From: Pristiophorus japonicus
Taxonomy: Eukaryota
Length of the DNA: 64,000 bases
Assembly: GCF_044704955.1 (NCBI RefSeq)
Contig: NC_091978.1
Span: forward strand, 219,170,001 to 219,234,000
Direction of reading: 5' to 3'
Below the pieces are notes generated by a model. It saw nothing but the letters and a program-made list of their open reading frames with translations. It did no database searches and was not told where the DNA came from. The translations under genes were made by a program, and so were the position numbers. Shown here piece by piece: positions 7,858 to 41,905 of the stretch. Positions within the stretch are counted from its first letter, which is position 1. Each line of letters begins with the position of its first letter.

Positions 7858-8996
7858 TTCATTAGACCCTTGCCTCCCCACTATTTCTGGTATGTTTTTT
7901 TATGTATTCTACTGTGAAGATAGTTTAGCTGTTAAAGTCAGCTATAGGTTGGAGCCCACATCAGCATTTGGTCCCCTTGTCCTTGGTGGTTCCCATTGTA
8001 GATTCCTTTGAAATTGCCACTCACTCCATGGTGCACTGCAGTGGTGACAATATTTTGTACGCTGCTGCAAAGTAGTAGTAACTGCACTCTTGCACATTCA
8101 TCAACATCACCTGCAGAGTCCCTTACATACAGGAGATAGACTCTTTGGCCTCTGCTGCAGTCAGCCTTAAGGATCCTGAAGAATATCATTTTTTTCCCCC
8201 TTCAAATTTTAACATTTGTTGGTGGGACCTGTGTATCATTACAGTAGGAGAACGATTGTACAGGCTCCTCTTCTCTGCAAGCCCCATGTTTCCTTCCATA
8301 AATTGTTGAACGCAAGATGCCAGGCACTAAGCTGGCCTTTGAGTCCAGTAGTCCAACTCGGCAAATGTGGAAAAAATGGCAGAAGCTGTCTCTCCCCTTT
8401 AAAGTTGAGCAACAATCCTTTAAGAGTAGCTGCCTCATCCAAAATCCTGCTGCTAACCAACTGTGCTTATAGCTTAGTTCCCAATGTTTCTTTTTCAAAT
8501 GGTGGTAGGTTATTCCAATTCATGGGAGGAGATAGCATGGCAACTTTCAGTGAGGTCAGCATTTCTCATGACTGACACAGGTGGGTGCAGCCTCAAAATT
8601 ATCTGCATTGTAAGTTCAGGGCTTGCTTTACCTAATGGATGCTGTAAAGACTAGCATAATTCACTACAAAAACTGCAAAAGAATTATTTTACAATTATGT
8701 TTGCCATGTTAATATAGACAGTACACGGTCTGTCCATATACGGACATAACGAAATGACAGACAGGAGATGGCCCATCAAACCAGCTGGTCCATCAAGCCT
8801 GCTCCAACCTCATAATGCCTGGAGTAATATGACTAGCCATTACGCAAAAGAATAGGTAGTGCAACTATTAAAACGGTCTTCGAGGTAGGTGTAAAAACTG
8901 GCAATAACTTTTAATCAAACGACAACACTAAAAATGACGATTGAATTTCTCACAGGATCAAATGGTATTATAAAGCAGTAGAAACATAGAAACAAA

Positions 8997-10517
8997 GGCC
9001 CCAAGTTTCCACATGATTTGCTCCTGATTTTTAGGAGCAACTGGTGTAGAACGGAGTATCTTAGAAATCGGAATTCTCCACATTTAGTTTGCTCCAGTTC
9101 TAGTCAGTTAGAACAGTTTCACTTTGGAACAGAATTTTTTTTTTCAAAAGGGGGCGTGTCCGGCCACCTACGCCTGATTTCAAAGTTTCGTGAGTGAAAA
9201 CTTACTCCAAACTAACTTAGAATGGAGTAAGTGAAGATTTTTGTACACTCGAAAAAACCTTGTCTACACTTTAGAAAATCAGGCGTAGGTTACAAATTAG
9301 GTGTAGGGAACGAGGTGGGGGGGGGGGGAGGCGGGGGAAGGGAAGTCATTAAATTCTACAATCAATCCTTAGTTATACTTATACAAATATTATACAAATA
9401 AATCCAACCTGAATAAAAATTTATAAGCAAAGAAAAAATTAAATAAACCATGTTCCTACCTGTGTGAAAGTGCTTCAGGCAGGCCTTTCATGTTGGAGAC
9501 AGGCAGCGGTGTGGCGTCAGTGTCTCGATGGCAGCGGCAGCAAGCTTCGAGCTGAGCTGCAGTGCTTGAGGCAGGCCTTCATTCTCTTCGTGGCTGGCCA
9601 GCAGCCGAAGAATCAGCAGACCGATGTGAGGCCATTCGGCCATGAGATAGCAGCGGCGTCAGTGGCTGGCCGGCAGCCGAAGAATCAATGCAGGACACAC
9701 GCAGCTCATTAAGGTTCTTGAGGCCATTCGGCCACGCTTTAGGGGCGGCATCAGTGGCTGGCCGGCAGCCAAAGAATCATCAGCGGACGGACATGAGGCC
9801 ATTCGGCCATAGGATATCAGTGGCGTCAGTGGCTGGCCGGCAGCCGAAGATACAGCAGCAGCCTTCGAGCTGTGAGGGAGACTGAGACCATTTGGACAGG
9901 GAGAGGCAGCCACATCGACAGTTTTATATTTAAATTTGCAGAATGGGTGCTGCATTGTCAACACCATGTATTATTGCAAAGTTGAATTGGCACTCTTATT
10001 TCTCCAAACACACAGTCCTTACTTTGCATGCACCAATGCAGCACCGGTTCTGCAAGATTAGCAGTGAAAAGCTGAACTCATTGATTTCAGCAGGTGATTT
10101 ATTCAGCAGTGCTGCTAAAAGCACTCCCTCACACACAGAAATACAAAAAAAAATTAAATTACAAGCCTTTGCAGGGGTCCAAGAAACAAATCTTCACTTT
10201 TTCTGCAGTATTTTTAAAAATGGCCGAGGGCCAATGTTTGTGTGAGGCTGCGCGTGCGGGCACGCTCCAACGCGCACGCGCAGGGTTGCCGGCACCACGA
10301 AGGCTAATTTAAATTGTACCCGCCCCCTGCTACTTAGAAAATTGGCGCGAGTATTAGGCTCCGCCCCCTGCTGCGAAGAGCGCGCCGCGCCAAGCAGACA
10401 TCGAGCTCCAAGGAGCTCGAGAATATTGGACTTTTTTTTAGGCGCAGTTTTTGGCGCGAAAAACAGGCGCCCAGTTCGGAGGTGCGCCGTTTTCGCCGCG
10501 GCATGAAACTTGGGGCC
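8997..10517 (+). mobile_element. Non-autonomous TIR DNA transposon (Harbinger/MITE-like) inserted in a CR1 tail
   Basis: 13-bp terminal inverted repeats GGCCCCAAGTTTC / GAAACTTGGGGCC. The (TAGAAACA)n CR1 tail flanks both sides. No transposase ORF. Confidence 0.8.
9590..9855. repeat. Tandem array of ~70-95 bp GC-rich units inside the TIR element
   Basis: Four copies of TGGCTGGCC(G/A)GCAGCC(G/A)AAGA alternate with three copies of GAGGCCATTCGGCCA. Confidence 0.85.
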
Positions 10518-11218
10518 ATAGAAATTTACATGCAGAAGAAGGCCATTTCGGCCCATCGTGTCCACGCCGGCTGACAAAGAGCCACACGGATCTTGGTCAG
10601 CAGCTCTAAAGGTTACATATAAACCTATGAACAATGATGGAAAGGCAAAGAGCACCCAGCCCAAACCAGTCCGCCTCAGACAACTGCGACCCCTTATACT
10701 GAAACATTCTACACTCCACCCCAACCGAAGCCATGTGATTTCCTGGGAGAGGCAAAAACCAGATAAAACCCAGGCCAATTTAGGGAGAAAAAATCTGGGA
10801 AAATTCCTCTTCGACCCATCCAGGCGATCGAAACTAGTCCAGGAGATCACCCTGGCCATATTCTATTCCCTGCAGTACTTACCATTATATCTGCGCCGTC
10901 CAACAAAAGGTCATCCAATCTAATCCCAATTACCAGCTCTAGGTCCGTAACGCTGCAGGTTACTGCACTTTAAGTGCGCATTCAACCATCTCTTAAAAGT
11001 GCTGAGGGTTTCTGCATCCACCAATCTTCCAAGCAGCGAATTCCATATTCCACACAACCCTCTGCGTAAAGAAGCCCTCCTCAAATCCCTTCTAAAACTT
11101 CCACCAACCACCTTAAAACCATGCCCCCTTGTAATAGGTCGCTCCACCAATGGAAATAGGCCCTTACTATCCACTATGTCCAGGCCCCTCAATATTTTGT
11201 ACACCTCAATAAGGTCTC

Positions 11219-11812
11219 TGTTAGCGTGAATGTTTTCTCGGAAGAATCACTCAACACAGAGTCGGTTCCAACGCCAAAGCGGCCTTTATTTTTGCTAGCG
11301 GGGAGGAAGCCTCAGGACTGGATCCAGGCACTTCTCTCCGATGAACAAAGAAACTCATCGATATTTATATGTTTTACAATAGTTCTTTACAGTTACTCAG
11401 CCCACTTCGGCTGGACACAATCCAATCAAACTGATTATAGATTACATATCGGTTTCTTTAACCCAATAGAATTCTCCTGATATCTCAGGGGCTGTATGTT
11501 CGGTTTTTGTCAGCTCGGGCTGATTAATGACCTCGTTATGTGAGGTGGGCCCCCCCCCCTCCCTTATCTCTGTTCCTCGGGCTCGGCTGTGTGAAGTCAC
11601 TGATTATACCAGTGTACTATAATGGTTTGTTATAATTATCTTGTATCCAAGGCATTCCTGGTAGTGGGCCTCACTAGGTCATTGCTCGGTCAGCCCCAGT
11701 TCATTACTTGACTAACTGAGTACCCATCATGCTTGGGCAGCCATTTTATATGTGGCCACTTTAAACTTATATGAGATTAGATATATTCAGCAGGTGCCTA
11801 ATGCCTACAACA
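11219..11812 (-). repeat. Provirus A 3' LTR
   Basis: TG...CA termini. Direct repeat of 17292-17889. Minus-strand TATA-like CATATAAAT (~11363-11371) and AATAAA (~11286-11291). PPT AAAGGAGGGAAT at 11813-11824. Confidence 0.95.
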
Positions 11813-11950
11813 ATTCCCTCCTTTCGGTAAAGGGACTAGTCCTAGACCCCCTTTAACCGGCCGCCCTACTTTTATTAGATTTTGTGCACGGCCCGGTACT
11901 CCCTGCCTCAACGTGCTGGCCAGTCATGCGGTTTCAGGAGTCCCGGTTGC

Positions 11951-14083
11951 TTAAATCAAATTGACAAAGGCCAAATCCTCCTGCCCCTTTATTAAACAGG
12001 CTTGTTTAGTATTTGGGGACCGGTCATGGGTCCCTCTTCGTTGTGCGTGGTGCCTGCATGCCTGGCAGGCCATTATGCCCCATGTTATTGCTAAGATCAA
12101 TTGTATCCCGACCAGTATGTATGAAATTATTCGAATCCAAGGATGGATGTTCACATTTATTCCCCAGTCCCAGACCTTTCTCCACCAACTCTGACTTTGT
12201 AGGTCTACATCGATATCTTCTTCCAGTACTTTGATTTTAGTTTGCAGTTGGTGGTAGAGCTTTACAGATTGACCCACCCTGATCCTCAATTCTCGTAATA
12301 CTTCGGTTAGATGTGGGATAGGGACATGATCTGATTCATCATAATCCTGCAAATGATCGTGGAGCTGATCGGTTACATCAATAACTTCGGGCTTCCGGCG
12401 CCTAACCTGGGTGATATGCGCTTGCCCGATCGCGACAGGTCGTAGCGGCGCAAAGCAAAAGTTCGGCTGTGGTATCGGGCACTGCAGGTCATTATACCGG
12501 TATGAATGCTCTGTGGTAGAGATGCAGTATCTTCCCTTCCCTCCGTAACCTGCCCTCGCGAAGTGCCTGTGTGCGGCCACTATTTCTAGTACACACCTGT
12601 CGGTTCGGTTAAACCCGCACTCGTCTAGCTCACCTCGGCCTACCGGGTGAGGGCATATTGTGATCTCCCCCCTTTGCTTGCATTCTGTTAGGGAGATCCC
12701 GGTAAGTATGTTGTTTCGACGAACGGTGGAGGTGGTGGTCAGATAGTAACGTATGGAGACATTTTCCCGTATTACTCCGATATTCTCTAGTTGGTACAGG
12801 GGAACAGCCCTGAGTCCGGCGTGGCTATAGGGATCATCAGGACTATCCCTATCCCAGTATTCCTACCCATCTGGCAATCTGGAATTGCTGAGTGTACTCA
12901 GGTCAGTCCCTTCAGAGTACAATTATCCACTGTCCCCCTCTGGTTAGCCAACTGAGCTAAATGTGAACTGTCTATCCAATCGGGTACTTCCCCGCGTTGG
13001 ATCTGGTCGAGATTGTGGCGGATCTGTCCCACCATCCACAGACCATAAGCGCGACAGAGTTGCCCCTGTCTTTGCTTTCCTGTATCTTCTTTTTCTCTAT
13101 CAATGAGGTGATTGATGGTTTTGGCGTGAGCTTCCAGGACTGAGATGCCATCCAACTGGATTTCGGCACCCTCCTTTCCGAGGTTGGCTTGGTCTTCCTG
13201 GTTTTGCTCCACCCTCTCTAATAACCCCTTCATCATCCCTCTAAGCTGTTCCACCCTCTCATTTAACCCTTATATATCTATCGAGTTTACTACGGAGGTC
13301 CTTGTATTGAAACCGGTAGCAACATCATTAACTATTCCCCTCTTTATCCTGGGGGCTGACCCCTGTCCTCGGAATCTACTGGCACCCATTGCATAGGCAG
13401 CCTGCTGCATTACAACTCTACTTAATACATTGTACATTTTCCTTGACTGTTCTGTACAGTATTCCGGCATCTGGATGCCTGAAATATTGATCAGGACAGG
13501 CACAATTTCATGTTTAACATTATCATACAATAATTCCCCTTCGTTGTACATTACAATCCCATTTTCTGGTCCCTTAGTAGTTATGGGACAAGGCAGTTCC
13601 TCGGGCAATGTAGTGGTTCTTATGGGGCGCGGTGTTGGAGGGGGTGAGAAGCACACATACAGTGATATTGCAGCCGCCCCCACCTCCTTGTAGTACCCAC
13701 ACAGCCCCACTCCCTTTTTGCGGATGACTGATTGCTGGGACTGTCATGGAGGTGCGCAAATTGTGCCGAAAGTACATTCATCGGGCCCTTTGACATCCCT
13801 CCGTTTAATGCAGCTGCTCCTTATACCCGTGGAGCACTGTACACATACCCAGCTCTTATTAATTCACTTGTAACCATGCATTAAAATAAGTCCTGTCCTT
13901 GCTCCAGTCCTTGACTGCTGGGATGCACATTCCATCCGTTAAATTAAACAAGACTCCATAGCTCATGTAGTTGTTTATTTCCTGAGTGCACTGCAATCCA
14001 TTGGTATCATCCAGTGTTTGCGTGAGTCTTGAGGTTCCCAGTATCATGAGTCCCCAGAGTCGAAGTCACCACTGCGGTCCCAT
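11951..14083 (-). pseudogene. env: Class I fusion glycoprotein (F-type env) with a few stops and frameshifts
   Basis: Stitched from ORFs 13859-14047, 13270-13710, 12898-13254 and 11951-12580. Signal-like N-terminus, furin site RIKR|GIVNDVATG, long heptad region, Cys-rich middle, second heptad, Trp-rich membrane-proximal SWWRKVWDW, TM helix and short tail. No gamma-type ISD or CX6CC. Confidence 0.8.
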
Positions 14084-14171
14084 CTTGGTGAGTGTTTTAT
14101 CTGAAAATTTTAAACAGATAGCCTGGTCGTCACGAAGTGTTAGGTTCTGGTCTACTTGTGTCGCTGTCACT

Positions 14172-14200
14172 CTGTGGAATCGGAGGTAAGGGTTAGGTTA
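14172..14200 (-). promoter_or_regulatory. Candidate env splice acceptor
   Basis: Minus strand TAACCTAACCCTTACCTCCGATTCCACAG| (branch point, pyrimidine tract, CAG), ~90 nt upstream of the candidate env ATG. Confidence 0.65.
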
Positions 14201-14210
14201 ACCATATTCT

Positions 14211-14363
14211 TTATAGTCGTACCATCTCTATCACTTCATGTCCCTGTCTGGGCTGCCATCGGTTTTGTGTTTGAGCCTGCTGTGCTCGAGCCTGCACGAT
14301 GACCCATCTAAATATTATCCAAACTCCAATCAACACCAATGCCACCATTATTCCTCCAAACAT
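14211..14363 (-). CDS. Putative 50-aa single-pass membrane accessory protein
   Basis: Manual translation MFGGIMVALVLIGVWIIFRWVIVQARAQQAQTQNRWQPRQGHEVIEMVRL*, lying between the pol remnant and env. Confidence 0.45.
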   Translation of the reverse strand: MFGGIMVALVLIGVWIIFRWVIVQARAQQAQTQNRWQPRQGHEVIEMVRL

Positions 14364-14599
14364 CGCTGTCTGCTTTACCGTTAGGTTGGGTTTGTGGACT
14401 ACATCTACCCACCGTGGGGTACATTGGCTCTATTGCCATAGGTGATGGTGCTATGGCTGCGCACTGCATTATCCGTCTAGTCCCGTTTTTTTAAAACATC
14501 TCTTCCAGCCTGTTTATCTTAGCTTTTAACTCTTGACCAGCTAGTTCTGTTTTATTTTTATTCTGAATATCCCACCATTTCCTCTGTCTGTCAGGTGAG

Positions 14600-16480
14600 T
14601 CTTCTTTATTTTATTAAGAAATCAAAATTAATAATGTCCAGTATAAAACAGCTGTCAATGGAAAGGGTTAACTCCTTTACAGATTTGTAAGAAAGCCTGA
14701 TGTCATTACGTGACTTTACGTAATCATCCGAAAAATTCTTTTTTTTTCCAAGTCTTTGTGCCTTCAAAACTTGCTTAGAAATTAGGAATCCGTTAAAACA
14801 GCATAAATCATTAGTAAAGTGGTTATAATAAAAATCTCATCGGGAAAGACAGCATTTTAGATTAAACTTCAATTTTTTCTTAACTTCTAATTCAAGTACT
14901 TGCCAAAGAATTTTTTTTTATTAATTGATTTAAAACAAGACCACACATTTTGAATAGCTATTTAGTTTACTGAAATCCAAATTTCACACATGCTGTGTAC
15001 ATTCTAACATTTTGTTTTATTTTACGGTCCCGTTCACTGGACAAATCTTGTGTTTTATTTCTCTCTCGGCACAAAATCTAAACATCCGTGCCAGTTCCAT
15101 TTTCGATAAGATTTTTAAAATTCAGTAAGATTCTCTAATTCCCAGTTTTTTTTCTGTGCTGAGTTCGCATAGCTTAGATCTTTTCTCCTCATTATCTTCA
15201 GACCCCCCTGCTTGTTTAGACTGTTCGGGACTTTTCTTGATAAACAACGTCCATTTTGGAAGTCTTTTCAAACTGCAGTGAAATTTTCACTGTAGAGTGT
15301 CTTTTACCTCTTCCAATTTTTTTTTCCTTTTCCTAATTAAACCAATATCTTTTTCACAGCAAACATCAACTAGTATTTAGTAAGTTATGTCTTTTTCCAT
15401 CACAAACACTTTTTTTTCAGCACTTATTTAGTATGTTACATCTTTTTTTTTTCAGATCTCCTTTCTTCAAATTAGATTTGTATTTTACACGGAGGGCTTG
15501 TGACTCCATAAATTTGTTAATTTAAAATCATTTGTTTACTTTCAAAGTGGCATCTTTATCTTTTTCTTTTCTCCATAACTAGAATGGAGTCCAGCAATTA
15601 GGCTTTGAGGGCTGCTTTTCGTTATCTCAAAATGCTCCAATTTCAAAGTCGTTAAAATGTCTCTTCTAAACTGCTAAAGCTTGCTGTTTTTAACATTTTT
15701 CAAAAGTCCCTTTTACACCTTCGCAGATAGCTCGCCACTCGCCCAGGAGTTTGATCTGATCCCTGAAGGTATTTCTAGATTGTTTCCAAACCTTTTAGTT
15801 TTATATCTCCTTTTTTCTTTAAGAGATCAGATTTAATTTAATAATTTTTTTTGAATTCACCTCAGTATTTTGCTGTGCCTTCTCTGACTATCTCAAAATC
15901 CCAATTCAAACTTTGTAATTTCAATCTTTATTTAAAACTTTTTTTTTGAGCTAGAAGCTTTTTTTAAAAGGCATTCTTTATCTCATTCTGAGACTAAATT
16001 TACATCATTCAACCCAATGTAATCAATCATTGCATGTTTTCTTTCGACAAGTAAGTGAGCGTGTCAAATAAAATTCTTTTTTTTTCTCAATCACCGGGAC
16101 CATGTATTTTTTATCTTTTACTCAACAATCATATCCTTTGTGCATTTCCTAGCTCCATAACTTATCATCCGAATAAATCCACACCTAACTTAAAATGTCT
16201 TAAAAGTTCCCACATACAGGACAACACTACAAAGGGTTAAAAAAACTTTCACTCTGTTTGGAAAAGTGGGTGGAGCTAAAATAAACAGACAGTTGCATTC
16301 CTCTTCCAACCAGGCTTTTGGAAACATGAAAACATAAAAAAATTCATTCCGCAGTCAAAAAATCACACAAGGACTCTCAATGACAGATATTCACAAAAGT
16401 CTCTCTTCATTCAACAAAGCCTATTAGTTTTTTTTTTGGCCGGCTCTATTCTTGGATCCATACTTCACTTAAGATAATCA
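14600..16480 (-). pseudogene. Heavily decayed and deleted gag-pol region of provirus A
   Basis: Rich in A/T homopolymers with no ORF. Faint integrase-like traces read CEIW (CxxC-like, ~14977-14988) followed by WQVLEL (~14885-14908). Confidence 0.4.
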
Positions 16481-16483
16481 CTA

Positions 16484-16741
16484 TCAGGTTTTTTTTTTAT
16501 TTCTTACATATTGATTTACTTCCTCTGTTAGTTTTACGTGGGCTCGCAGTATCAAAACTACTGCCTTTTCCTCTTTGTCTTTTTTTTCCTTCTCCCACAA
16601 TTCTCTTTGATTCGCTGGCAGGTCCTGAGGATCCCACCCTGCTCTAATCATTTTCTCGATTAGTTTCTTTTGTTTTTCCACCAGGTGGCGGGTAAGGGAC
16701 CATTCTGGTCCCCACTCGAGGTTACTTGCTTTCATGGCCAT
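16484..16741 (-). pseudogene. Truncated gag-like N-terminus of provirus A
   Basis: ATG-initiated ORF after the ~530-nt leader; charged and helical (LVEKQKKLIEKMIRAGWDP..ELW). Assigned by position only. Confidence 0.5.
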
Positions 16742-17234
16742 TCCTGGGTAGGACTAGAACCATTAGGAATCTACTCTCAGAGGTCCGCTTTCTACCTAGC
16801 GTAACTTGTAGTAGACCGTCTCCTGGCTACTGTCAGGTCACAAGTTCTGCTGTTACACAAACTTATACAATTCTTAAAACGTGTTTAAGCAATTCCCGCA
16901 GTGCTCTACGTATCCTTAACGACTACCTACCACCGCTCTGCCCATTGGTCCGACCCTGTTCACAGATTTGGATTCCGTTAGCCGCTGTACACCGCTTGGT
17001 TCTACCCCGGTGTATATTTCAAATCACACTACTAGGTCCGGAAGATGTCTTTCGGTATCACGATCCCACGGTCCAAGTGTGTTCCCGGCACCTACTTAGT
17101 TCCTGGCCGTCACGTGGGACTAAAGTCCTCTTAATTCAGGCAGAGGCTAGGTGTTTGAGATATTGGACCATCTCCTCATGTCGATCAACCAGCATCCACC
17201 TTCCGCACCCGTTATAAAATTTTGTTTAAGGTAT

Positions 17235-17243
17235 ACTCACCCG
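17235..17243 (-). promoter_or_regulatory. Candidate major splice donor of provirus A
   Basis: CGG|GTGAGT on the minus strand, ~30 nt after the PBS. Confidence 0.65.
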
Positions 17244-17271
17244 GTTTCTCAAAGAGCGTCAGCGACCCCGC

Positions 17272-17290
17272 AATCCTGTTCGTGACGCCA
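17272..17290 (-). promoter_or_regulatory. Primer binding site, tRNA-Ser(CGA)
   Basis: Plus strand AATCCTGTTCGTGACGCCA equals, from memory, the 3' end plus CCA of a vertebrate tRNA-Ser(CGA). It lies 1 nt from the LTR. Confidence 0.85.
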
Positions 17291-17291
17291 C

Positions 17292-17889
17292 TGTTAGCGT
17301 GAATCTTTTCTCGGAAGAATCACTCAACACTCAGAGTCGGTTCCAATGCCAAAGCGGCCTTTATTTTCGCTAGCGGGGAGGAAGCCTCAGGACTGGATCC
17401 AGGCACTTCTCTCCGATGAACAAAGAAACTCATTGATATTTATATGTTTTACAATAGTTCTTTACAGTTACTCAGCCCACTTCGGCTGGACACAATCCAA
17501 TCATACCGATTATAGATTACATATAGGATTCTTTAACCCAATAGAATTCTCCTGATATCTCAGGGGCTGTATGTTCGGTTTTTGTCAGCTCGGGCTGATT
17601 AATGACCTCGTTATGTGAGGTGGGCCCCCCCCGCCCCCCCCTTATCTCTGTTCCTCGGGCTCGGTTGTGTGAAGTCACTGATTATACCAGTGTACTATAA
17701 TGGTTCGTTATAATTATCTTGTATCCAAGGCATTCCTGGTAGTGGGCCTCACTAGGTCATTGCTCGGTCAGCCCCAGTTCATTACTTGACTAACTGAGTA
17801 CCCATCATGCTTGGGCAGCCATTTTATATGTGGCACTTTAAACTTATATGAGTTTAGATATATTCAGCAGGTGCCTAATGCCTACAACC
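17292..17889 (-). repeat. Provirus A 5' LTR
   Basis: Direct repeat of 11219-11812 with roughly 15 differences by eye. The outer terminal base is mutated (CC instead of CA). Confidence 0.95.
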
Positions 17890-19568
17890 GTCTCCTCTCA
17901 ACCTCCTCTGTTCCAATGAGAACAAACGCAGCCTATCCAAACTGTATTCATAACTAAGATTCTCCATTACAGGCAGCATCCAAGTAAATCTCCTCTGCAC
18001 CCTCTCTAGTGCAATCATGTCCTTCCTATAGTATGGCGATCAGAACTGCACGCAGTACTCCAGCTGTGGTCTAACCAAAGTATTATACAATTTAAGCAGA
18101 ACCTCTCTGCTCCTATAGTCTATGCCTCGGCCACTAAAGGCAAGCATTCCATATGCCTTTGTAGCCACCTTATCGACCTGGCCTGCTACTTTCAGGAATC
18201 TGTGGACAAGCACACCAAGGTCCCTTTGTTCATCGACACTATTAAGTGGCCTATCACTTAATGTGCATACCCTTTCCTTATTAGCCCTCCCAAAATGCAT
18301 CACCTCACACTTCTCTGAATTAAATTCCATTTGCCACTGCTCTGCCCACCTGACCAGTAGATTGATATCCTCCTGCAGCCCATGACTTTCCTCTTCATTA
18401 TCAACCACACAACAATTTTACTGTTGTTTGCAAATTTCTTAATTATACTCCCTGTATTCAAATCTAAATCATTGATATATTCCACAAAAAGCAAGGGACA
18501 CAGTACTGAGCCTTGGGACACAGTATTGAAACCACTGGAAACATCCTTCCAGTCACAAAAACATCCATCAATCATTACTCTTTGCATCCTACCTCCAAGC
18601 CAATTTTGGATCCAACTTGCCACTTTTCCCTCTATCCCATGGGCTTTAACCTTCATGACCAGTCTACTATGTGGGACCTTATCCAAAGCCTTGATAAAGT
18701 CCATATATATTACATCGTACACATTACCCTCATCGATTCTCTTGGTTAGCTCCTCAAAAAATTCAATCAGGTTAGTCAAACACGATCTTCCCTTAACAAA
18801 TCCGAATTAATCCTTGCCTTTCCAAATGTAGATTTATCCTGTCTTTCAGGATTTTTTGCAATAATTTTCCCACAACTGAGGTTAGGCTGACAGGCCTGTA
18901 ATTACTCAGCCTATCCCTTTCTCCCTTCTTAAACAAAGGTACTACATCAGCAGTCCTCCAATCCTCCGGCACCATGCCCAGTTCCAAAGAGGACTGGACA
19001 ATGATGGTCAAGGCCTTTGCTATTTCCTCATTTACTTTGCTCAACAGCCTGGGATGCATTTCATCTGGGCCTGGGGACTTATATACTTTCAAAGCTGAAA
19101 AAGCCCTTAATACTTCCTCTCTCACTATATTTATTTCATCCAGAATAGCCTCATCGATAACAGTATCTACATTGCCCCATTCTTTTGTGAAAATAACTTC
19201 TGCCTCCACACAAAGATTACCCTCATGGTCTCTAATAGGCTCTACCTTTTCTTTAGTTACCCTCTTACTCTTAATAGAACATCTTAGGGTTTTCTTTAAT
19301 TTTACTGTCCAAGAATTTCTCGTGTTCTCTCTTAGCATTCCTAATATTCTTTTTAATTTTGCCTCTTAACTTTCTATATACCTCTAAAGATTCTATAGTA
19401 TTTAGCCGTTAGTAAATGACATAAGCGTCCCTTTTTTTCTTAATCCTCCCCTGTAAGTCCCTGGACATCCAAGGGGCTCTAGAATTATTTTTCCCAGCAT
19501 TTTTCTTTAAGGGCACATGTTTGGCCTGAGCCTTCCTGATCTCCTCCTTGAATCCCTCCCACTGGTCT

Positions 19569-22745: not shown

Positions 22746-25190
22746 ACAAAAGCAAAATACTATGATGCTGGAAATCTGAAGAAAAAAAACAGAAAATGCT
22801 GGAAACACTCAGCAAGTCAGGCAGAACTGTGGAGACAGAAACAGAATTAACATTTCAGATCGATGACCTATATAACAGAAGTTAGAGAATTAATAGTTTA
22901 TGAACAATTATAGAGCCAGAGAAAAAGGAGGAGACAGGAAAGAACAAAGGGGAGGGTCTGTGATAGAGTGGAAAGCAGGAATGATTAACTGACAAAGGGA
23001 TAATGGTTCAAGGCAAAATGGGGCGTGGTAATCGATCACTAAAGAATCAATAGATGGGTTGAGAGCAGCTGTAAATGGCAACAGCAGAGCCATTACAAGC
23101 ACCTGCTGTCCGAGAAAATAGGAGCGATGTGAAGTTGTTGAACACAATGTTGAGGCTGGAAGGTCGTAAAGTGCCGAAGAAAAAAATGAGGTGCTGTTCC
23201 TTGAGCTTGCACTGAGGTTCATTAGAACAGTGCAGGAGGCCGAGGATAGAGAGGTCAGAGTGGGAGTAGGATGGAGAATTAAAATGACAAGCAACTGGAA
23301 GCTCAGGGCCATGCATGTGGACTGAATGAAGGTGTTCAGCAAAGAGACCACCCAATCTATATTTGGTCTCCCCGATGTAGAGGAGACCACATTGTGAGAA
23401 GCAAATACAGTATACTACATTGAAAGAAGTACAAGTAAATAGTTGTTTAAGCTGGAACAAGAGTTTGGTGCGATGGGAGGAAATGAAAGGGCAGGTATTG
23501 CATTTCCAGCGCTTTCATGGAAAGGTCCTAGGTGAAAGAGAGCGGGGATTGGGGGAGGTGGAAGATTGGACCAGGGTGATGCAGAGTGAATGGTCCCTTC
23601 AGAATGCTCAAAGAGGAGGAAAGGAAGATGTGTTCGGTGGTAGCATCTCGCTGGAGGTGGCAGAAATGGTGGAGGATGATCGTTGAATGTGAAGGCTGGT
23701 GGGGTGGAATGTGAGGAGAAGGGGGACCCTATTGTGGTTCTGGGAGGGAGGAGAAGGGGTGAGGGCAGAAGTGCAGGAAATGGGCCATACACGATCGAAG
23801 GCCATGTCAACCATGGTGGAGGGGAATCCTCAGTTGAGGAAAAAGGAAGACATATCGGAAGCATTACTATAGAAGATGGCATCATCAGAACAGATGTGAC
23901 AGAGGTGGAGAAACTGGAAGAATGAAATAGAGTCCTTACAATAAGGAGGAAAGAAGTTCAATTAAGGTAGCTGTGGGAGTCAGTAGATTTGTAGTAGATA
24001 TTGGTGGTCAACCTATTCCCCAAAATTAAAATAGAAAAATTGAGGAAGGGAAGGGAAGAATTGGAGAGGGACCATGTGAAGACGAGGGAGGGATAGAAAT
24101 TGGAAGCAAAGTTGATGAAATTTTCCAGTTCAGGTGAGAGAAAGAAGTAGCACCAACATAGCCATCAATGTATAGGAAAAAGAGGTGAGGGAGAGGACCC
24201 AAGTAGGATTGGAACAAAGAATGTTCCACGTATCCCATAAAAAGGCAGGGCATAGCTAGGAGCCATATGGATTCCCATAGTGACACCTTTTATTTGGAAG
24301 AAGCATGTTGTCCTGGTGGTGGGTAGAGATGTAGAGGGATGAGCTATCCATGGCAAAAAGGACATGGTTAGGGCCAGGAAATTGCAAACAGTTAAAGTGC
24401 TGGAATGCATCAGAAGAGTCGTAGATGTAGGCCAAAAGAGATGGGACAAGGGGATCAAAAATGGAGTCAAGATAGGCAGAAATAAGTTCCATGGGACAGG
24501 AAGAGGCTGAAACAATGGGTGTACCAGGGCAGTCCTATTTGTGGATCTTGGGAAGGAGGTAGAAGCGGGATGTGCAGGGTTGGGGGACTATGTGAATGGA
24601 GACCATGGGGGAAAGATCTCCAGAGAAGATGAGGTCAGTGACTGTCTGGAAACGATGGTTTGATGTTTGGCGGTGGGGTCATGGTCTGGGGGAGATAGGA
24701 GGAGATGTCGAAGATTTGGCATTCAGCCTCTGCAAAGTAGAGGTTTGTTCACCAAACAAAGGAAGGCTGCCCTGCTCAGCAGGTTTAATGATAATGTCAA
24801 GGTTGGATCTGAAAGAACAGAGCTGAAAAATCAGAGGGAGATAGGTTAGAGTGAGTGAGGGGAACAGAGAAATTGAAATGGCCAATGTCACATCGGCAGT
24901 TCCCAATGAAAAGATCAAACAAGGGTAAGAGGCTAGAGGGAGAGGCCCAGGTGGAATGAGAATTCTGAAGATGGGAGAAAGGGTCAGCTGTGCGGGGGGA
25001 AGACTCCTGGCCAAAGAAGTGGGCACAGAGGCGAAGATGATGGACGAAGAGCTCAGCATCATGTCAAGCTCAAAATTCATTGAGGTGGAAGCGTAAGGGA
25101 GTGAAGCTGAGGCCTTTGCTCAGGACTGATAATTTGGCATCAGAGAAGGGAAGTCTCAGAGGGGATAGTGAAAACACAACAAAGGATGAC
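22746..25190 (-). mobile_element. Degenerate Penelope-like retroelement (RT + GIY-YIG endonuclease)
   Basis: GIY-YIG domain NVVYCI.C..C.LLYIGET..RL..FAEH...PVACHFN...EQHLIF..GTL.P..LN (23047-23460). RT motifs QIKGVTMG..MAPSYA, LFMGYVE, LYIDG, and IIIKPAEQG. Confidence 0.9.
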
Positions 25191-25659
25191 GATGTGCCTA
25201 TTGTTATCCATGACACATTTTGCATTAAATGCCATTTTAATTTACTGCTGGCCATTCTCCAGGTTATCTAATTCCATTTCACACTAGCCATAGTTTTATT
25301 TTGACCGATCAGCCATAATTCCATGAAGAGAACAGACATATTGTTGAGGATGCATCAAGCAAACAGGCTGACATTTCTAGGAGGATTGCATGAATGATCT
25401 TCTGTAAAATCCAAACACTGGAAACACAGCAGTAATATTCCCAAACGTGTACTCATTAACTAATGATATGTTTTGATGTGCCTAATTACATTTCCCTTGT
25501 AACTTAAGCTTGGGGATTTATGACTGCAGTGAAAAGCCTTTGCTCAATAATCATGATTCCTCTGAACAAACGCTAACAACTTTCATGTAAAGCGACATCA
25601 GGTAAGGACAGGATTAGATTGACTGTAACTTCCCCCGCATCCCACAGTGCAAAGGTCTG

Positions 25660-26200
25660 TGTGAAAAGATAGAAAAAGAGCAACCATAGATTGCAAGGCT
25701 TGCTGGGACATTATATTTGGTCAACCTAAGAATTAGAGCTTACTTCAGCAACTATACCAAACAAGCTCTCAGCAGTTGAAACCATGGGTTGCATTACCTC
25801 ACGGCAGCTAAGGTCATCTGTCTTCTCTGTCTAATTATAATCACAATAAGGATGTGTAAACCAAAAAAAACAAGACAGTGTGTACAGGGGGCAAGGAGAG
25901 GTTCGCCCAAAATAAGGAAAGGGTAGCTAAGACAAGTAGCCATTGGATAACACTGATGAGGTAATTAAATTAACTGCTATACTCTGCACTATTACAAAAA
26001 AAAGAGGAACCATCACATATGATAGGACTTGTTTACTTGGGTGTATAAATATTCCAAAATTTCTGTAGATTGTCGGAGTTGGTACCCTTAGCCTTTGACT
26101 AGGGCACTCTCCCCTTGTATACAAGTAAAAATAAACTAACAATCTGACGGTCTGCTTGTGTTAAGAGTCTAAACTTGAATCGGTGTCTTCGACAGAATTT
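25660..26200 (+). repeat. Provirus B 5' LTR
   Basis: Direct repeat of 30775-31302. TATAAATA at ~26044 and AATAAA at ~26130. The exact 3' end is uncertain (26194-26201). Confidence 0.92.
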
Positions 26201-26202
26201 AT

Positions 26203-26220
26203 TGGAGGTTCCACCGAGAT
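26203..26220 (+). promoter_or_regulatory. Primer binding site, tRNA-Gln
   Basis: TGGAGGTTCCACCGAGAT, the canonical Gln PBS. Confidence 0.92.
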
Positions 26221-26542
26221 CGCTTACTATTTGCCGGTGAGTAAACGAACAAGAACACGGTGACTCTACAGGGAAGGACTCTAACTGGCCAGTCATCAGT
26301 GACATTTTTGTTACTAAAGGAGCCCTTCCTTGGAGAGAGCGCAAGTGTAGTCTGTTTGTCTCGGCAGAGGTACTGCGATTGTCGGACTCATTTCAGGATT
26401 GAGTTAAATTTTTGTAATCACTTCCTCTTTCAGCTTGACAGTAAGAGGGGACAGATTCCGAAAAGCAAAAAATTTCAGCCCTGAAGCGGGCCGGCAGATT
26501 GTAAAGGGGGGAAGGTAAGAAAATACGTCATTAAAAGGTCCC

Positions 26543-26674
26543 TGTTTCTTGTGTGGTAGAAACAAATACCCTTGTGTGATAGGGAGAAATAAGATGGGAC
26601 GCGATCCTTGTGTGATAGGATCATAGAAATTATCCTTGTGTGACAGGATAAGTCATCCTTGTGTGATAGGATGA
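26543..26674 (+). promoter_or_regulatory. Array of five stem-loops in the ERV leader (candidate packaging signal)
   Basis: Conserved core CT-TGTGTG(AT/GT/AC)-AG with different but self-complementary stems. Confidence 0.7.
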
Positions 26675-27100
26675 GGACTCTGGTTTGATGGGATCATTTA
26701 GAATAAGTTAAGGACTCAGTCTGTAGGGGCGTACCATGCAGACTAAGAATTGATTATTTGTTTAGTTAAAGCATAAGGATTATGATCTGTGCACCCCTTT
26801 GGGTTTTCACATTTTTATTGTCTTCATAATATTGTTATGTGCGTCAATTGTCTATGAGCTCTCAGGAAGACATAACAGGGGAGGTTGTGTTTCAGAAACG
26901 TATAAATTGGTTGAAACAGAACAGTGATCGGTTGATTAACAGCGAGTGACGCGTGTCCAACAATAACTCAAACACCCAGACTGAGCCCGAATTAAGAACC
27001 CAAATGGGTCACGTGACGACCAGGTGAATTGGGCGTGGGGAACTCAGTTGGAGCGAGAGGACTGTGATACGGAGAACTGTGATATCTCAACCAGTTAAAT

Positions 27101-27290
27101 ATGGGTGCTGGAGCAAGAAAGGGCACACCAGTCTTTTTTATGCTCCAGAATTGTGGTCAGTCTTCAAATGATCACCTAAAAAAAAATGGGTAAAGTGGAC
27201 TCAGGGTGAAAACAGGCCATTTCCACCCGATGGTTCATTTAATTTAGAGAGAACAACATGTAGAGGAGTGTCTTATAAACAGAGACCCAA
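27101..27290 (+). pseudogene. gag: gag N-terminal (matrix) remnant
   Basis: MGAGARKGTPVFFMLQN..(frameshift)WVKWTQGENRPFPPDGSFNL: myristoylation-type MG start and the gamma/epsilon matrix-like P.xGSF motif. Confidence 0.7.
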
Positions 27291-28329
27291 GGGAAAAAGA
27301 AAGTAATAAAAAAAAGGCCTGAATTCCGATTCTTTGAGCCCACGTAAAATTAACAGAGGAAGTAAATCAATATGAAAGAAAAGGGGAAAAAAAAGAAGAA
27401 ACCTTATAGTGATGTATATGGATCCAAAATATAGAGCTGGCTGAACAATAAGCTTTGTTGAATGAAGAGAGACTTTTGTGAATGTCTGTTTTTGAGTGAG
27501 AGTACTTGTGTGATTTTGACTGCGGAATGAATGAAAGCCTGTTTGGGAAACCGGGGAGTTGTCAGTTTGTTTTAGCTCCACCCACTTTTTCAAACAGAGT
27601 GAAGTTTTTTTTTTAAACCCTTCGGAGTGTTGTCTTGTGTGTGGGAAGTTTAAGAGTGTGAACCTTATTGAATTACATTTTAAGTTAGAAACGAAGGTGT
27701 GGATTTATTCGGATGATAAGTTACGGAGCTAGGAAATTATCAAAGGATAGGTTTGTTGAGCAAACCCTGCGTGGTCTGAGAAGGGAAGTTGTAAAGCATT
27801 TTTTTTTAAAAGCCTACGTGGTCTGAGAAGGGAAGTTGTAATGCATTTTTTTTTAAAGCCTGCGTGGTCTCTTGAGGCTGCAGGCTGGGGGAGTACGCTC
27901 CCATTGCCCTTTGTGTAAAATCTTGACGCGAAAGCTTCTAGCTCAGTAAATAGATTTTAAATAAATGATTGGCAGTACAATATCCGAATTGGGATTTTGA
28001 GATATTTCAGGTGATTCTCCTTGATAAACATTTTGGTTGTATTGGAAAAATCTTGGGTTTGGAAGCCTTTTTAATAAAATTACACAACTACTGAGTCAGG
28101 AGCTTAAAAGGTTGTAACTTATGAGACACTGTATCATAAAATTGAAGTTACAGAGCAAAATATTGGAGTTTTTGATGTTCAGCTTCTAAACCAAGAGTTG
28201 GGCACACAATTATAAAACAAGTACTTTGCATTCTGTGATCTGTGAATCACTATAAGCATAAATGAGAAGTCCGATTTAAAAAAAAACAGTATTACCATAT
28301 TTGACATTTTGTAATCCAACAATAGATAC

Positions 28330-29290
28330 AAATACAAAAGGGGGGACGGCAGATTATATTTTGGCAACTTGGTATGCACCAGGTATTTCGGCAATTGCAA
28401 AACAAATCTGTGAAAATTGTGTTACCTGTCAGACAATGAATCGGGTAAAACAGAAAAGGTAGACTCTGCCTCCCACCCAAACCCAATGGGGCCTTTTGTA
28501 CATTTGCAAATGGATTTTATTGAATTACCCCCATGCATGGGATTTAAGTATGTATTAGTAATTATAGATGTGTTTTCTAAATGGGTTGAAGCTTTTCCAT
28601 GTAAAAAGAATGACACAACTACTGTCGCGAAGTATTTGTTAAAAGAAATTGTGCCATGATTTGGCATACGTGTACAACTCTCAGTGACAATAGGTCACAT
28701 TTTACTGGGACAGTTGTGAAAGAAATGTGTCGAGCGTTACAAATCGACCAACATTTCCACTGCAGTTATCACCCACAGTCAGCTGGATTGGTAGAGAGAT
28801 ACAACGGAATGTTGAAGAATAAACTAGCAAAGTTATGTGATGAAACTGGACTCAAATGGGTCGGACTGTTACCTTTGGCAGTAATGGTAATGTGATCAGC
28901 AACAAATAGAACGACAGGATTATCACCACATGAAATCGTCATGGAACGTCCCCAATGTTTGCCTTTTTCTGCACCGTTTACTGCTAAACAAATGGATGTC
29001 CACAAAATAGAAGAAAATATGCTAAACTATTTCATTGCTTTAACAAAATGTATTTCTAGCTTTCATTCCCAGGTAAAGGAAGCCCAAATTGATCCTGCTG
29101 AAGGAAGATGCCATAGCTTGGAGCCTGGCGAGTTCGAGTACGTGAAGGTGTTCAAGAGGCAAAATAGTCTTCACCCAAGGTTTGAAGGTCCATTCTAGAT
29201 CCTGTTGACCACCAATACTGCCGTGAAGATAAAGGAGAGATCAACATGGATCCACGCCTCACACTGCAAAAGAGCTCCAGGACACGAGGA
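28330..29290 (+). pseudogene. pol: Retroviral integrase remnant
   Basis: CENCVTC zinc finger, HLQMDFIEL, IDVFSKWVEAFP, SDN.SHFT, YHPQSAGLVERYN, L.PRFEGPF. Several stops and frameshifts. Confidence 0.92.
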
Positions 29291-29299
29291 AAAGGAATC

Positions 29300-30740
29300 A
29301 CCAACACCATCAGTAAAGGGAAATGGACATTAGGACTATGTTTCCTTGTGACACTTATAATACCTGTAATGCCCGAATTACATGTAAACACCTTCTTGTA
29401 TATGTCCCACAAATACGCTATGGAAAACAACAAAGAAGGAGATTGTTGGATATGTACCCAAACCCCTCTCCACTCTAAGGGAGGATTCCTCGTAGACCTA
29501 TCCCACTTAACCTGTCAGAAGTAGTAGAATGGTATATCTACCAGAACGGCACACGTCAATTCCCTAGGATGATAAGAGTTGCGTCTGTGGTAGTATACCC
29601 ACCATCGGGCGACGGGAAGATGATGGAATCCTCTAGTTTATCATTTTACCCCATATCTGCAGAGCCCTGGGAAAAAGGGGGGATATCACCTGAATACCTT
29701 TGAAGGGTGGTACCAACCGAGGTAAGACCACTCCCAACAGCCTCCCTTCCTCACCCTTACCAGGGCCACAGGTATGGGAAGGCCACCGGGGACAATATGT
29801 TTCGTAAGGAACTTAGCCGGGGGAATAGTCGTAGGCACGATTCGGTGCGAATATAATTTTACAGTGATGGGTACTCCTGACGAGTTTTCCCTTTATACGT
29901 CCTCTCAGTTTTATGGTTGTACATTGAATGTCCCATACGCCAACCAGATAGGTACTTTCAACTATTCCATGGTATCCGCAGGGTTTGATGTGGATAAAAC
30001 CACCTCGTACAATGGAACATACTTTGTTTGTGGCCACAAGGCCTCCCCCTGGTTGCCAAGGGGCTGGACAGGATCATGTTACCTGGCATATATGGTACCA
30101 TTCATTCATCACTTATCCTCTCTAGCAAATCGCCCGCATTATCGATCCAGACGAGCCATTACAGAAACACAACGATTCTTTTCTATCCTTGTTCCCCCTC
30201 TAGAAGTAGCATTTGCCATAAAAGAAATAAGAAAAGTGGCTAGAATATTAGAAGAGGTAGCAAACGACACTATAGAAGCTATAAGCGGATTAAACAATGA
30301 AATGGTGGCTATAAGAACAGTAGCTTTGCAAAATAGAATGGCTCTAGACTATCTGCTAGCAGAAAAGGGTGGAACATGTGCACTAATGGGGTCCGAGTGT
30401 TGCACGTACATTCCTGGCAATTCTGAGGAAATAGGTAACTTAGTGGACCACTTCCGGAAGGAAGTTGAAAAGTTAAAGAAACCAGGTTCCTGGGACATGT
30501 TTGATTGGGCGGATGGTTCGGGCCTATAGGTCAAACCATAGTACAAGGGCTGATCATATTCCTGGTCATTATCTTTGCTCTATATTTGGTATTTGTCCTG
30601 ATAAAATGCTGCTGTGCGCGACTAGGGGCTGCAGCCGTACCAGCGGGGCGACCACCATGATGATAGCCACAACCCCAGAAGCCTCAGAGAAGGCAGAAAC
30701 CATGGAGATGGAGAGACTCTGTAAAATTCAGTTGAACTAA
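29300..30740 (+). pseudogene. env: Gamma-type env remnant
   Basis: Signal peptide, CWIC, W.GSCYL, furin RSRR, immunosuppressive domain LQNRMALDYLLAEKGGTC, CX6CC (CALMGSECC), and hydrophobic TM after a stop at 30527-30529. Confidence 0.95.
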
Positions 30741-30774
30741 AAGTTATTGTCCCTATAGGGACAAAAGGGAGGAA

Positions 30775-31302
30775 TGTGGAAAGATAGAAAAAGAGCAACC
30801 ATAGATTGCAAGGCTTGCTGGGACATTATATTTGGTCAACCTAAGAATTAGAGCTTACTTCAGCAACTATACCAAACAAGCTGTCAGCAGTTGAAACCAC
30901 GGGTTACATTACCTCACGGCAGCTAAGGTCATCTGTCTTCTCTGTCTAATTATAATCACAATAAGGATGTGTAAACCAAAAAAAACAGACAGTGTGTACA
31001 GGGGGCAAGGAGAGGTTAGCCCAAAATAAGGAAAGGGTAGCTAAGACAAGTAGCCATTGGATAACTCTGATGAGGTAATTAAATTAACTGCTAGACTCTG
31101 CACTATTACAAAAAAAGAGGAACCATCACATATGATAGGACTTATTTACTTGGGTGTATAAATATTCCAAAATTTCTGTAGATTGTTGGAGTTGGTACCC
31201 TAAGCCTTTGACTAGGGCACTCTCCCCTTGTATACAAGTAAAAATAAACTAACAATCTGACGGTCTACTTGTGTTAAGAGTCTTACCATGAATCGGTGTC
31301 TT
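30775..31302 (+). repeat. Provirus B 3' LTR, end truncated
   Basis: Matches the 5' LTR up to AATCGGTGTCTT, then runs directly into duplicated flank. Confidence 0.92.
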
Positions 31303-31639
31303 AGGACAGGATTAGATTGACTGTAATTTCCCTCGCATCCCACAGTGCAAAGGTCTGCCAACACTCACTGTCCAGGTGGACATGTGAATGAAGAGCTGGA
31401 GGCTGGCCAGAGCCCTTGGATCCATAACCCAACTTCAGAAAAGGAGGGAGGAAAATTGAATCATAGAATCATAGAATCATTACAGCACAGTAGGAGGCCA
31501 TTCAGCCCATTGAGCCAGTGCCGGCTCTCTGCAGGAGCACTTCAGCTAGTCCCAATCCCCCACTTGGTGATCTGAAAGGAAAAAATTAACACAAAGTAAA
31601 CATTCCCTCGCATTTTTATTCATCAAGCAGCCTATCATT

Positions 31640-37875: not shown

Positions 37876-38220
37876 CACTGCCTGTTCCAATCTGTCATGT
37901 ATGTAACCATCATGCAAATGTATGTAACCATCATGCAATGGTAACCTTCATGTAACTGTAACCTTCATGCAACTCCTATACACTGTACTTATACCCTAGA
38001 GATGCACACCCTGACCACAGGGGGTGAAATTGTGGGAGACACTCCTCACCTGGGCTTCCAGGTATAAAAGGGGAGGTCCCACCCAGGGTCAGCACTCCTT
38101 GGTCCTGGGGAATAAAGGTTAAGGACACGTAGTGAATGTGTCTACAGTACATGCCTCGTGTGATTTTAGTAAGGTGCAGAGACACCGCATTTGGCGACGA
38201 GAAACGGGAATCACCGAACT

Positions 38221-38838
38221 ATGAGGATGGCCACCGGTAGCACAGAGGAACGTTACTGTGTGGATGAGGACTGGGACGACTTTGTGGAGAGAATCCAACA
38301 GAGCTTTGTCACGAAGGACTGGCTGGGAGCGACAGCGGCTGACAAGCAGAGGGCGCATCTACTGACCAGCTGCGGGACACAGACATATGCGCTGATGAAA
38401 GACCTTCTCGCACCCCAAAAGCCAGCGGACAAGTCCTTTGAAGAGCTCAGCCAGCTGATCAGTGAGCATCTCAAGCTGGCGAGTAGCGTACATATGGCCC
38501 GGCACCAGTTCTACACACACCAGCGTCAGGAGGGACAAAACATCTCGGACTTCCTTGAGGACCTACGGCGCTTGGCCAGTCTCTGTAAGTTCACAGACGC
38601 CTGCAGGGGGGAGATGTTAAGGGACTTTTTCATTGAGGGCATTAATCATGCCGGGATTTTGAGGAAGCTCAAAGAGACCAAGGACTTGAATTTAGAAGGG
38701 GCGGCGTTGATAGCTCAGACCTTCATGGCAGGGGAAGAGGAGACCAAGGTAATTTATGCGCACAGCCCTGGTCCCAATGTGGCGATGGACCAGGGAATTA
38801 ACATGGTGAATGCGGCTCACAACAATATAATAACATAA
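38221..38838 (+). CDS. gag: Gypsy gag N-terminal part, interrupted by CR1
   Basis: EDWDDFVER..FV...LLTSCG..TYAL.KDLLAP..F..R.Q.EGQ....LRRLA..C.F...MLRDFF. Homologous to ORF 50890-52101. Confidence 0.88.
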   Translation: MRMATGSTEERYCVDEDWDDFVERIQQSFVTKDWLGATAADKQRAHLLTSCGTQTYALMKDLLAPQKPADKSFEELSQLISEHLKLASSVHMARHQFYTHQRQEGQNISDFLEDLRRLASLCKFTDACRGEMLRDFFIEGINHAGILRKLKETKDLNLEGAALIAQTFMAGEEETKVIYAHSPGPNVAMDQGINMVNAAHNNIIT

Positions 38839-41800: not shown

Positions 41801-41905
41801 TCTTCCTATCACCTTGTGCTTTACACTTACCCCAGTGCTACTCTGCTCTGCTGCCTCCTGCCTTTTGCATTCTTTCTTGGGGTCCTGTTCATCTGCGCTC
41901 TCCCC
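38830..41905 (-). mobile_element. CR1 LINE with near-complete, frameshifted ORF2
   Basis: (AACATAAG)n tail at 38830-38865. APE motifs YLNARSI, GGGVAL, YRPP, GDFN, DH. RT motifs GVPQGSVLGP and KFADDTK. Confidence 0.95.

Follow-up and report, generated by a model that had tools for sequence, protein, structure and literature searches.

The 64,000-nt stretch of the sawshark Pristiophorus japonicus analyzed here (contig NC_091978.1, positions 219,170,001 to 219,234,000; the window) contains an endogenous retrovirus (ERV) of 6,671 nt, on the minus strand between exact ends at 11219 and 17889, that retains an envelope gene (env) and has no detectable gag or pol. The env gene encodes a class Ib (F-type) fusogen, as judged from the predicted fold of an intact homolog, P0001, and a block of the element was already non-coding in an ancestor shared with a second provirus ~8 kb away. 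We consider it reasonably probable that the element belongs to a long-lived non-autonomous ERV family of sharks moved by a helper, for which an epsilon-like/class I system is the most likely candidate. Features of the element:

11214-11218 and 17890-17894 (unstranded): left and right copies of the target-site duplication (TSD), GTCTC
17292-17889, minus: 5' long terminal repeat (LTR), 598 nt, with TATAAA at 17444-17439 and AATAAA at 17365-17360
17273-17290, minus: primer-binding site (PBS), 18 nt, beginning TGG, after the 5' LTR
17052-17165, minus: leader stretch common to the second provirus (partner 26961-27073; 70% identity, E 8e-8)
16487-16753, minus: 89-codon open reading frame (ORF) at the gag-start position; 19% of shuffles have one as long; no homolog
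15889-16589, minus: ~700-nt shared block (counterpart 27292-28004 in the second provirus)
14600-16480, minus: A-rich non-coding interval of 1,881 nt at the gag-pol position, with many homopolymer runs
14214-14600, minus: broken short frames preceding env, which include a strong transmembrane (TM) helix (Kyte-Doolittle 2.68) and a stretch resembling a coiled coil
14101-14120, minus: probable env splice acceptor, a tract rich in pyrimidines with CAG at its end, 18 nt before the ATG
11951-14083, minus: env, 711 codons, ATG at 14083 and stop at 11951
13339-13350, minus: furin-type motif RIKR, followed by a putative fusion peptide, with ~460 codons after it
12074-12130, minus: Env TM helix (19-residue Kyte-Doolittle mean 2.15)
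11814-11825, minus: polypurine tract (PPT) before the 3' LTR
11219-11812, minus: 3' LTR, 594 nt, TG...CA, with AATAAA at 11290-11285

The paired TG...CA LTRs, TSD, PBS and PPT identify the element as an LTR provirus. All of the parts that the original prediction had described as clear were located, and its estimate of LTRs ~2-3% apart agreed with the 13 substitutions counted over ~592 aligned nt (2.2%), to which three gap events are added; the outermost base of the 5' LTR is unlike that of the 3' LTR (a single terminal base). The insertion target was a fragment of a long interspersed nuclear element (LINE), which we take to be CR1, and LINE reverse transcriptase (RT) remnants run on at 18040-19365. 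The PBS presumably corresponds to tRNA-Ser; its motif turned up in none of the literature searched, and no tRNA genes or other Rfam families were found in the 64-kb window. Substitution rates are slower in sharks, so the insertion is probably older than the ~5 million years obtained from the LTR distance at a rate of 2.2e-9. That rate is the one used by Wang and Han (PMC7947760).

The interval between leader and env carried no sign of coding. Positions 14600-16480 are 32% GC, and contain 13 A/T runs of seven or more (versus 1.5 ± 1.2 in shuffles). Every sense frame there carries 5.4-8.3 stops per 100 codons, and the longest ORF, 76 codons, was reached by 12% of shuffles. No Pfam family was detected in any of the three sense frames of 14070-17291, and a tblastx comparison with the remainder of the window, where integrase and RT remnants are present, revealed no trace of gag or pol. 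Among the 24 codons of the 89-codon ORF that are common to the neighboring provirus, there were four synonymous and seven other differences. The claim that gag-pol had been reduced to homopolymer-rich noise was upheld as far as the noise is concerned, and a gag-pol origin of the interval is suggested only by its position. Neither a same-LTR partner nor a second copy of these LTRs was present in the 64-kb window.

Env is predicted to have been expressed from the usual spliced mRNA, as a related sawshark gene model, P0012, joins leader sequence (16975-16928) to the CAG acceptor site just upstream of the env ATG. The protein has a signal peptide, a ~140-aa Cys-rich N-terminal module with a Pro/Thr-rich linker, an F2-like strand and helix, the RIKR motif (RSKR in P0001) and a TM subunit of ~460 aa; the signal and fusion peptides were called from sequence and position. 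The original prediction of an env of ~700 codons was accurate in length, and its "few lesions" proved to be four in-frame stops (14068, 13746, 13272 and 12900) and two frameshifts (near 13865 and 12810), so this copy is dead; it has no evident host function. In simulations at the LTR-derived rate, 0.9, 1.7 and 2.5 stops per 700 codons were expected for CpG multipliers of 1, 5 and 10, respectively, and extrapolation from the LTR indel rate gave ~3-4 frameshifts compared to the two observed. Because the lesions approximate the neutral expectation since insertion, the reading frame was probably still open when the element inserted, or shortly before, and then decayed neutrally. Upstream, the broken frames at 14214-14600 are possibly the remnant of an accessory membrane protein, judging by their coiled-coil-like stretch and TM helix, and they matched no Pfam family. 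Their reading as a leftover second env tail was rejected, as the env-family profile gave E 1.1, similar to unrelated hydrophobic pieces.

A scan of the two large env pieces and of P0001 detected neither the immunosuppressive domain (ISD) nor a CX6-7CC motif, both of which it did detect in the env of the neighbor. The element's env thus lacks the ISD, CX6CC and TLV_coat signature of gamma-type (class Ia) Envs, which the neighbor's env displays, and the very long TM subunit without these motifs that had been predicted was confirmed. Pfam searches with the env pieces and P0001, as well as PDB sequence searches with the env C-terminal ORF and a 19-row family profile, returned nothing significant.

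The fold was assigned through P0001, which is 54-57% identical to the window env over residues 74-688. Its predicted model matched paramyxovirus/pneumovirus F (Foldseek E 2e-10), as the proposal of an F-type fusogen had anticipated, with P0001 residues 173-568 aligned to F from F residue ~25 onward, across F2 and F1. This span dominated the fold searches; outside it lies an additional ~140-residue N-terminal module that probably serves receptor binding. The model has a pLDDT of 69.6 and a pTM of 0.46, with TM-scores to its matches of 0.2-0.5, and a single-sequence fold of P0001 was unsuccessful (pLDDT 34). The signal peptide, furin site, fusion peptide, long TM subunit and membrane anchor reproduce the class Ib layout. 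Among the BFVD matches, Q9WHI8 and A4GTG3, the Envs of walleye epidermal hyperplasia virus 1 (WEHV-1) and walleye dermal sarcoma virus (WDSV), ranked 5 and 18 and were the best-ranked named retroviral structural neighbors of the P0001 model, above foamy Env, which was matched as well. The model thereby hints that these epsilonretrovirus Envs may also be class Ib, which we did not find stated in the literature searched. Because foamy and WEHV/WDSV Envs match too, an F-type Env is not diagnostic of lokiretroviruses.

The second provirus is non-autonomous and related to the first. Its features:

25660-31313, plus: second provirus
25660-26199 and 30775-31313, plus: LTRs, 3.0% apart, unrelated to those of the first element
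26203, plus: PBS, differing from that of the first element
~28330-29330, plus: broken integrase (rve, H2C2 and MLVIN_C, the last at 1.8e-11)
~29330-30740, plus: broken gamma-type env (TLV_coat 3.4e-15, ISD and CX6CC)

No protease, RT or RNase H was detected in the second provirus. It may be assigned to class I from MLVIN_C, its gamma-type Env and the report of such shark Envs on epsilon-like Pol. Upstream of the shared block lies what we take, from an unconfirmed motif, to be a gag-like start. A 55-bp duplication (53/55 identical) flanks this provirus at 25605-25659 and 31303-31357, overlapping the 3' LTR end, with no 4-6 bp TSD, and possibly reflects an aberrant one-ended integration.

The leader stretch (115 nt) and the ~700-nt block occur in the same order and sense in both proviruses, and the sequence between the two stretches does not align. 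Over 635 aligned columns the two copies of the block have 82% identity; its core scores 308, whereas none of 100 shuffles exceeded 34, and the window contains no further copy of this core. Only six of its 29 gaps are multiples of three, there is no third-position bias, and the stop triplets common to both copies number 7 of 14, 8 of 14 and 12 of 21 in the three frames. Because stops are shared in all three frames, the block was already non-coding in the common ancestor of the two proviruses, which bears out the original prediction that decay far predates this insertion. Divergence of the block is ~18%, versus the 1-1.5% that each provirus gathered in place (LTRs 2.2% and 3.0% apart), and together with the ancestral non-coding state this supports long copying in trans: coding was lost before insertion, as in a trans-copied non-autonomous ERV. 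The block is a candidate cis-acting (packaging) region.

Relatives of this Env were found in sharks, a skate and frogs. When 1,044 candidates were searched with the env C-terminal ORF, two proteins were recovered; the two belong to Mustelus asterias, the source of P0001 (714 aa, 57% identical), whose cluster has further copies 99% identical. With P0001 as the query, 58 proteins were obtained at E ≤ 0.001; 21 were identified, and the 19 that are named comprise 14 shark (five genera), one skate and four frog sequences, with no teleost. The closest named relative of the window env is a P. japonicus gene model (85% identity). A Mantella cluster has 16 members, the 12 full-length ones being 97.5-99.9% identical. 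A tree of 19 rows, many of them fragments, split a frog-containing group from a chondrichthyan group (96/95) and grouped the window env pieces with sawshark, Heterodontus, Mustelus and Chiloscyllium sequences (99/98). None of the 51 family members matched PF00523 or Baculo_F at E ≤ 0.1 in single-sequence scans, which weak similarity can escape, and one chimeric gene model outside this set touched Baculo_F at 0.001; in the Atlas, clusters for Baculo_F and Fusion_gly are given at 0.91-0.92, with a low recognition value.

The N-terminal modules of P0022, P0033, P0035, P0042 and P0046 are wholly unlike each other, and some look Ig-like, which suggests module exchange or capture among related Envs. 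The Ig-like lead comes from a V-set match in P0046 (E 0.045) and the UniRef name for P0022; a PDB sequence search with P0046 and P0035 gave no matches. Pieces of this Env are also contained in the shark gene models P0037, P0038 and P0051 (Niban 1-like, fbxo15 and cadherin-related 5-like), which are probably exonized proviruses or annotation chimeras. No description of the shark and frog family was found in the literature searched, a scope that lies outside Repbase and Dfam, including the available portions of PMC12583693, PMC13709493, PMC11521997, PMC12440569, 10.1101/2024.03.17.585361 and PMC8672886; PMC13524379, in the portion available, defers vertebrate ERVs to later work. F-like Envs in vertebrate retroelements and env-donating defective ERVs are already known. 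That literature yielded no account of this shark and frog Env clade with its added N-terminal module, of the backbone segment tying it to a provirus with gamma-type Env, or of the structural matches to epsilonretroviruses.

We propose that gag-pol was lost many replication rounds ago and that the LTRs, PBS, PPT, leader/packaging region and spliced env were retained. LTR-driven RNA would be packaged, reverse transcribed and integrated by the Gag-Pol of an autonomous helper elsewhere in the genome, and the spliced mRNA would supply a furin-cleaved class Ib fusogen. Selection would have kept env open, most simply if particles with this RNA spread by infection using it, and env would have decayed neutrally after this insertion. 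Co-packaged non-autonomous families would also exchange modules, up to a whole Env class, and their recombination would leave one backbone segment on both class Ia-Env and class Ib-Env proviruses; such an exchange is suggested because the second family has the shared block but a gamma-type Env and an MLV-like integrase end. The helper would most likely be epsilon-like/class I rather than lokiretroviral. In the two-component system that the original prediction raised, the element would in addition have supplied Env to its Gag-Pol partner, a hypothetical role.

Several observations weigh against this account. No helper was seen and the element is without RT, so that its putative class is read from the neighbor; LTRs and PBS are not the same in the two proviruses; in the PDB the best match of the neighbor's integrase core is foamy integrase (E 1e-10), and the MLV C-terminal domain is matched at 1e-8. 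The fold model is of moderate quality and was built on a homolog, not the window env. Four env stops are on the high side of expectation, and env decay may have preceded insertion. Relatives of the 89-codon ORF at the gag position were sought and none was found. Some class I ERVs make a 5-bp TSD, and the 5-bp TSD of the element therefore weighs little against class I, although gammaretroviruses and foamy viruses have 4 nt (PMC5210030). Clade III comprises most chondrichthyan ERV RTs (10.1101/2023.10.17.562709).

That predominance, the 5-bp TSD, the class Ib nature of foamy Env and the failure of the sequence between the shared stretches to align would all suit an element derived from and moved by a clade III retrovirus (snakehead-retrovirus-like or foamy-like) with a native class Ib Env, the shared block having arisen by template switching between unrelated families. 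HERV-S, a class III ERV, uses tRNA-Ser (PMC5210030), the tRNA presumed above for the element's PBS. We regard this origin as unlikely, although it retains some weight: walleye epsilonretrovirus Envs outrank foamy Env in BFVD, the receptor-binding domain (RBD) of foamy Env sits between the subunits whereas the extra module here is N-terminal, and the element does not have the GGGTG that fish foamy-like ERVs carry where PPT and LTR meet. The lokiretroviral affinity toward which the original prediction leaned fared worse. The order of motifs (a GP-x-G-hydrophobic F2 start, RxKR, a helical repeat and a Cys-rich C-terminal half) resembles loki Env by eye (PMC7947760), and non-autonomous loki families exist, as with the gag-only BHIKHARI (10.1101/2024.03.25.586437), so the element can be envisaged as a degenerate lokiretrovirus, which would add cartilaginous fish to the hosts of that lineage. 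However, lokiretroviruses were found in none of three chondrichthyan genomes (PMC7947760), and the two loki Envs that could be compared from a full-length start have no extra N-terminal module; PF00523 was matched by 0 of 51 family members, no teleost is among the 19 named relatives of the 58 matches, and the backbone is common to a provirus with gamma-type Env and MLV-type integrase. This reading is improbable.

Rated about as low is the proposal of no long history in trans: the virus that inserted would have been autonomous, with a long AT-rich non-coding leader, and a single deletion peculiar to this copy would have removed gag-pol. A single event would account for the missing pol, and nothing positive shows that the noisy interval ever was gag-pol. 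Yet independent deletions would be needed in both proviruses right after the same shared block, the neighbor's block lies downstream of the putative gag-like start and upstream of integrase, at a coding-sequence position, and the homopolymer excess (13 versus 1.5 expected) speaks against it; we consider this proposal quite improbable. Retention of env for a host function (co-option for receptor interference or cell fusion) rather than viral spread finds some favor in the spliced gene models of shark relatives and in intact copies in several hosts. It is very improbable: the six lesions of this copy match roughly the neutral rate, and the intact relatives are multi-copy, with the 97-99.9% identity that a recent amplification would leave.

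Other repeats also occur in the window. A Gypsy-type LTR retrotransposon (50576-55308, plus) has remnants of a zinc knuckle, protease, RT, RNase H and integrase but lacks env; a related element (37918-42772, plus) has LTRs ~95% alike and a LINE inserted at ~38850-42110, and a further Gypsy-type integrase remnant lies at 55712-56479 (minus). The Gypsy-type elements were rejected as helpers, having no shared DNA with the provirus. Inverted repeats of ~335 nt (548-882 and 8989-9325; 90% identity, 8.1 kb apart) represent a DNA-transposon-like element or, alternatively, a short repeat present twice in opposite orientations. A resemblance to a Penelope-like GIY-YIG endonuclease was seen by eye at 22900-24000 (minus), with no Pfam match at E ≤ 0.01, and a LINE RT remnant that we take to be RTE-like occupies 44565-45975 (plus).

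A bolder reading, which we offer tentatively, is that sharks and frogs host an old, undescribed class Ib Env clade whose N-terminal module can be swapped (it is Cys-rich here and possibly Ig-like in other members), carried on epsilon-like orthoretroviral backbones and exchanged whole with gamma-type class Ia Envs among co-packaged families; that env-only and gag-pol elements form an obligate two-part virus in sharks; and that class Ib is perhaps ancestral. Structural schemes treat orthoretroviral Env as class Ia and only foamy Env as class Ib (PMC11468914), and if the reading is correct, class Ib Env would lie within Orthoretrovirinae, given the WEHV/WDSV matches. Class Ib may then be the ancestral retroviral envelope, shared with foamy viruses and lokiretroviruses and later replaced by gamma-type Env; Wang and Han set out four scenarios for the first retroviral envelope (PMC7947760). 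A compact multi-copy class Ib Env family of sharks, skates and frogs escapes Pfam- and syncytin-based screens, and in the window the two Env classes, Ia and Ib, occur naturally next to each other, on proviruses with a common backbone segment. Persistence of an env-only ERV family through long trans-replication would be the reverse of the usual env-loss route.

The element can be compared with several known systems. Lokiretroviruses (Wang and Han 2021, PMC7947760) are likewise vertebrate LTR elements whose Env has a signal peptide, RxKR, a coiled coil, a TM helix and a relation to Mononegavirales F. They are defined by RT, which this element is without (an RT clade sister to Retroviridae, with a tether and RNase H and a CGIN1-related integrase; PMC7947760), and their Env matches PF00523 at 2e-7 (PMC7947760), compared to 0 of 51 in this family; the Env described here has the extra ~140-aa N-terminal module. 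WEHV-1 and WDSV are the best-ranked retroviral structural neighbors, have aquatic hosts and fit the class I backbone to which the neighboring provirus points; unlike this element, they are autonomous exogenous viruses, with Envs of 1,159-1,317 aa versus ~710 here, 12-15% identity and TM-scores of 0.28 and 0.15. In foamy Env the accessory module lies between the subunits (Fernandez et al. 2024, PMC11468914), whereas here it is N-terminal, as in coronavirus spike. The element also differs in its cleavable signal peptide (called from sequence), its 5-bp rather than 4-nt TSD and its PPT-LTR junction, which is not the GGGTG of foamy-like fish ERVs (PMC5210030). Chondrichthyan ERVs with syncytin-like Env (10.64898/2026.05.06.723177) are of the same kind as the second provirus, combining gamma-type Env with epsilon-like Pol in sharks, and that syncytin-query screen could not report the F-type family because ISD and CX6-7C were required. 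Defective env-carrying proviruses have a precedent in chickens. EAV-HP proviruses are pol-deleted and env-retaining. This endogenous family donated env to another retrovirus to give avian leukosis virus subgroup J (PMC10820513); it is alpharetroviral with a gamma-type Env, whereas here Env is class Ib and gag is also unrecognizable. BHIKHARI, the non-autonomous lokiretroviruses of zebrafish (10.1101/2024.03.25.586437), are single-gene non-autonomous fish ERVs as well, and keeping gag but lacking pol and env, they are the mirror image of the sawshark element.

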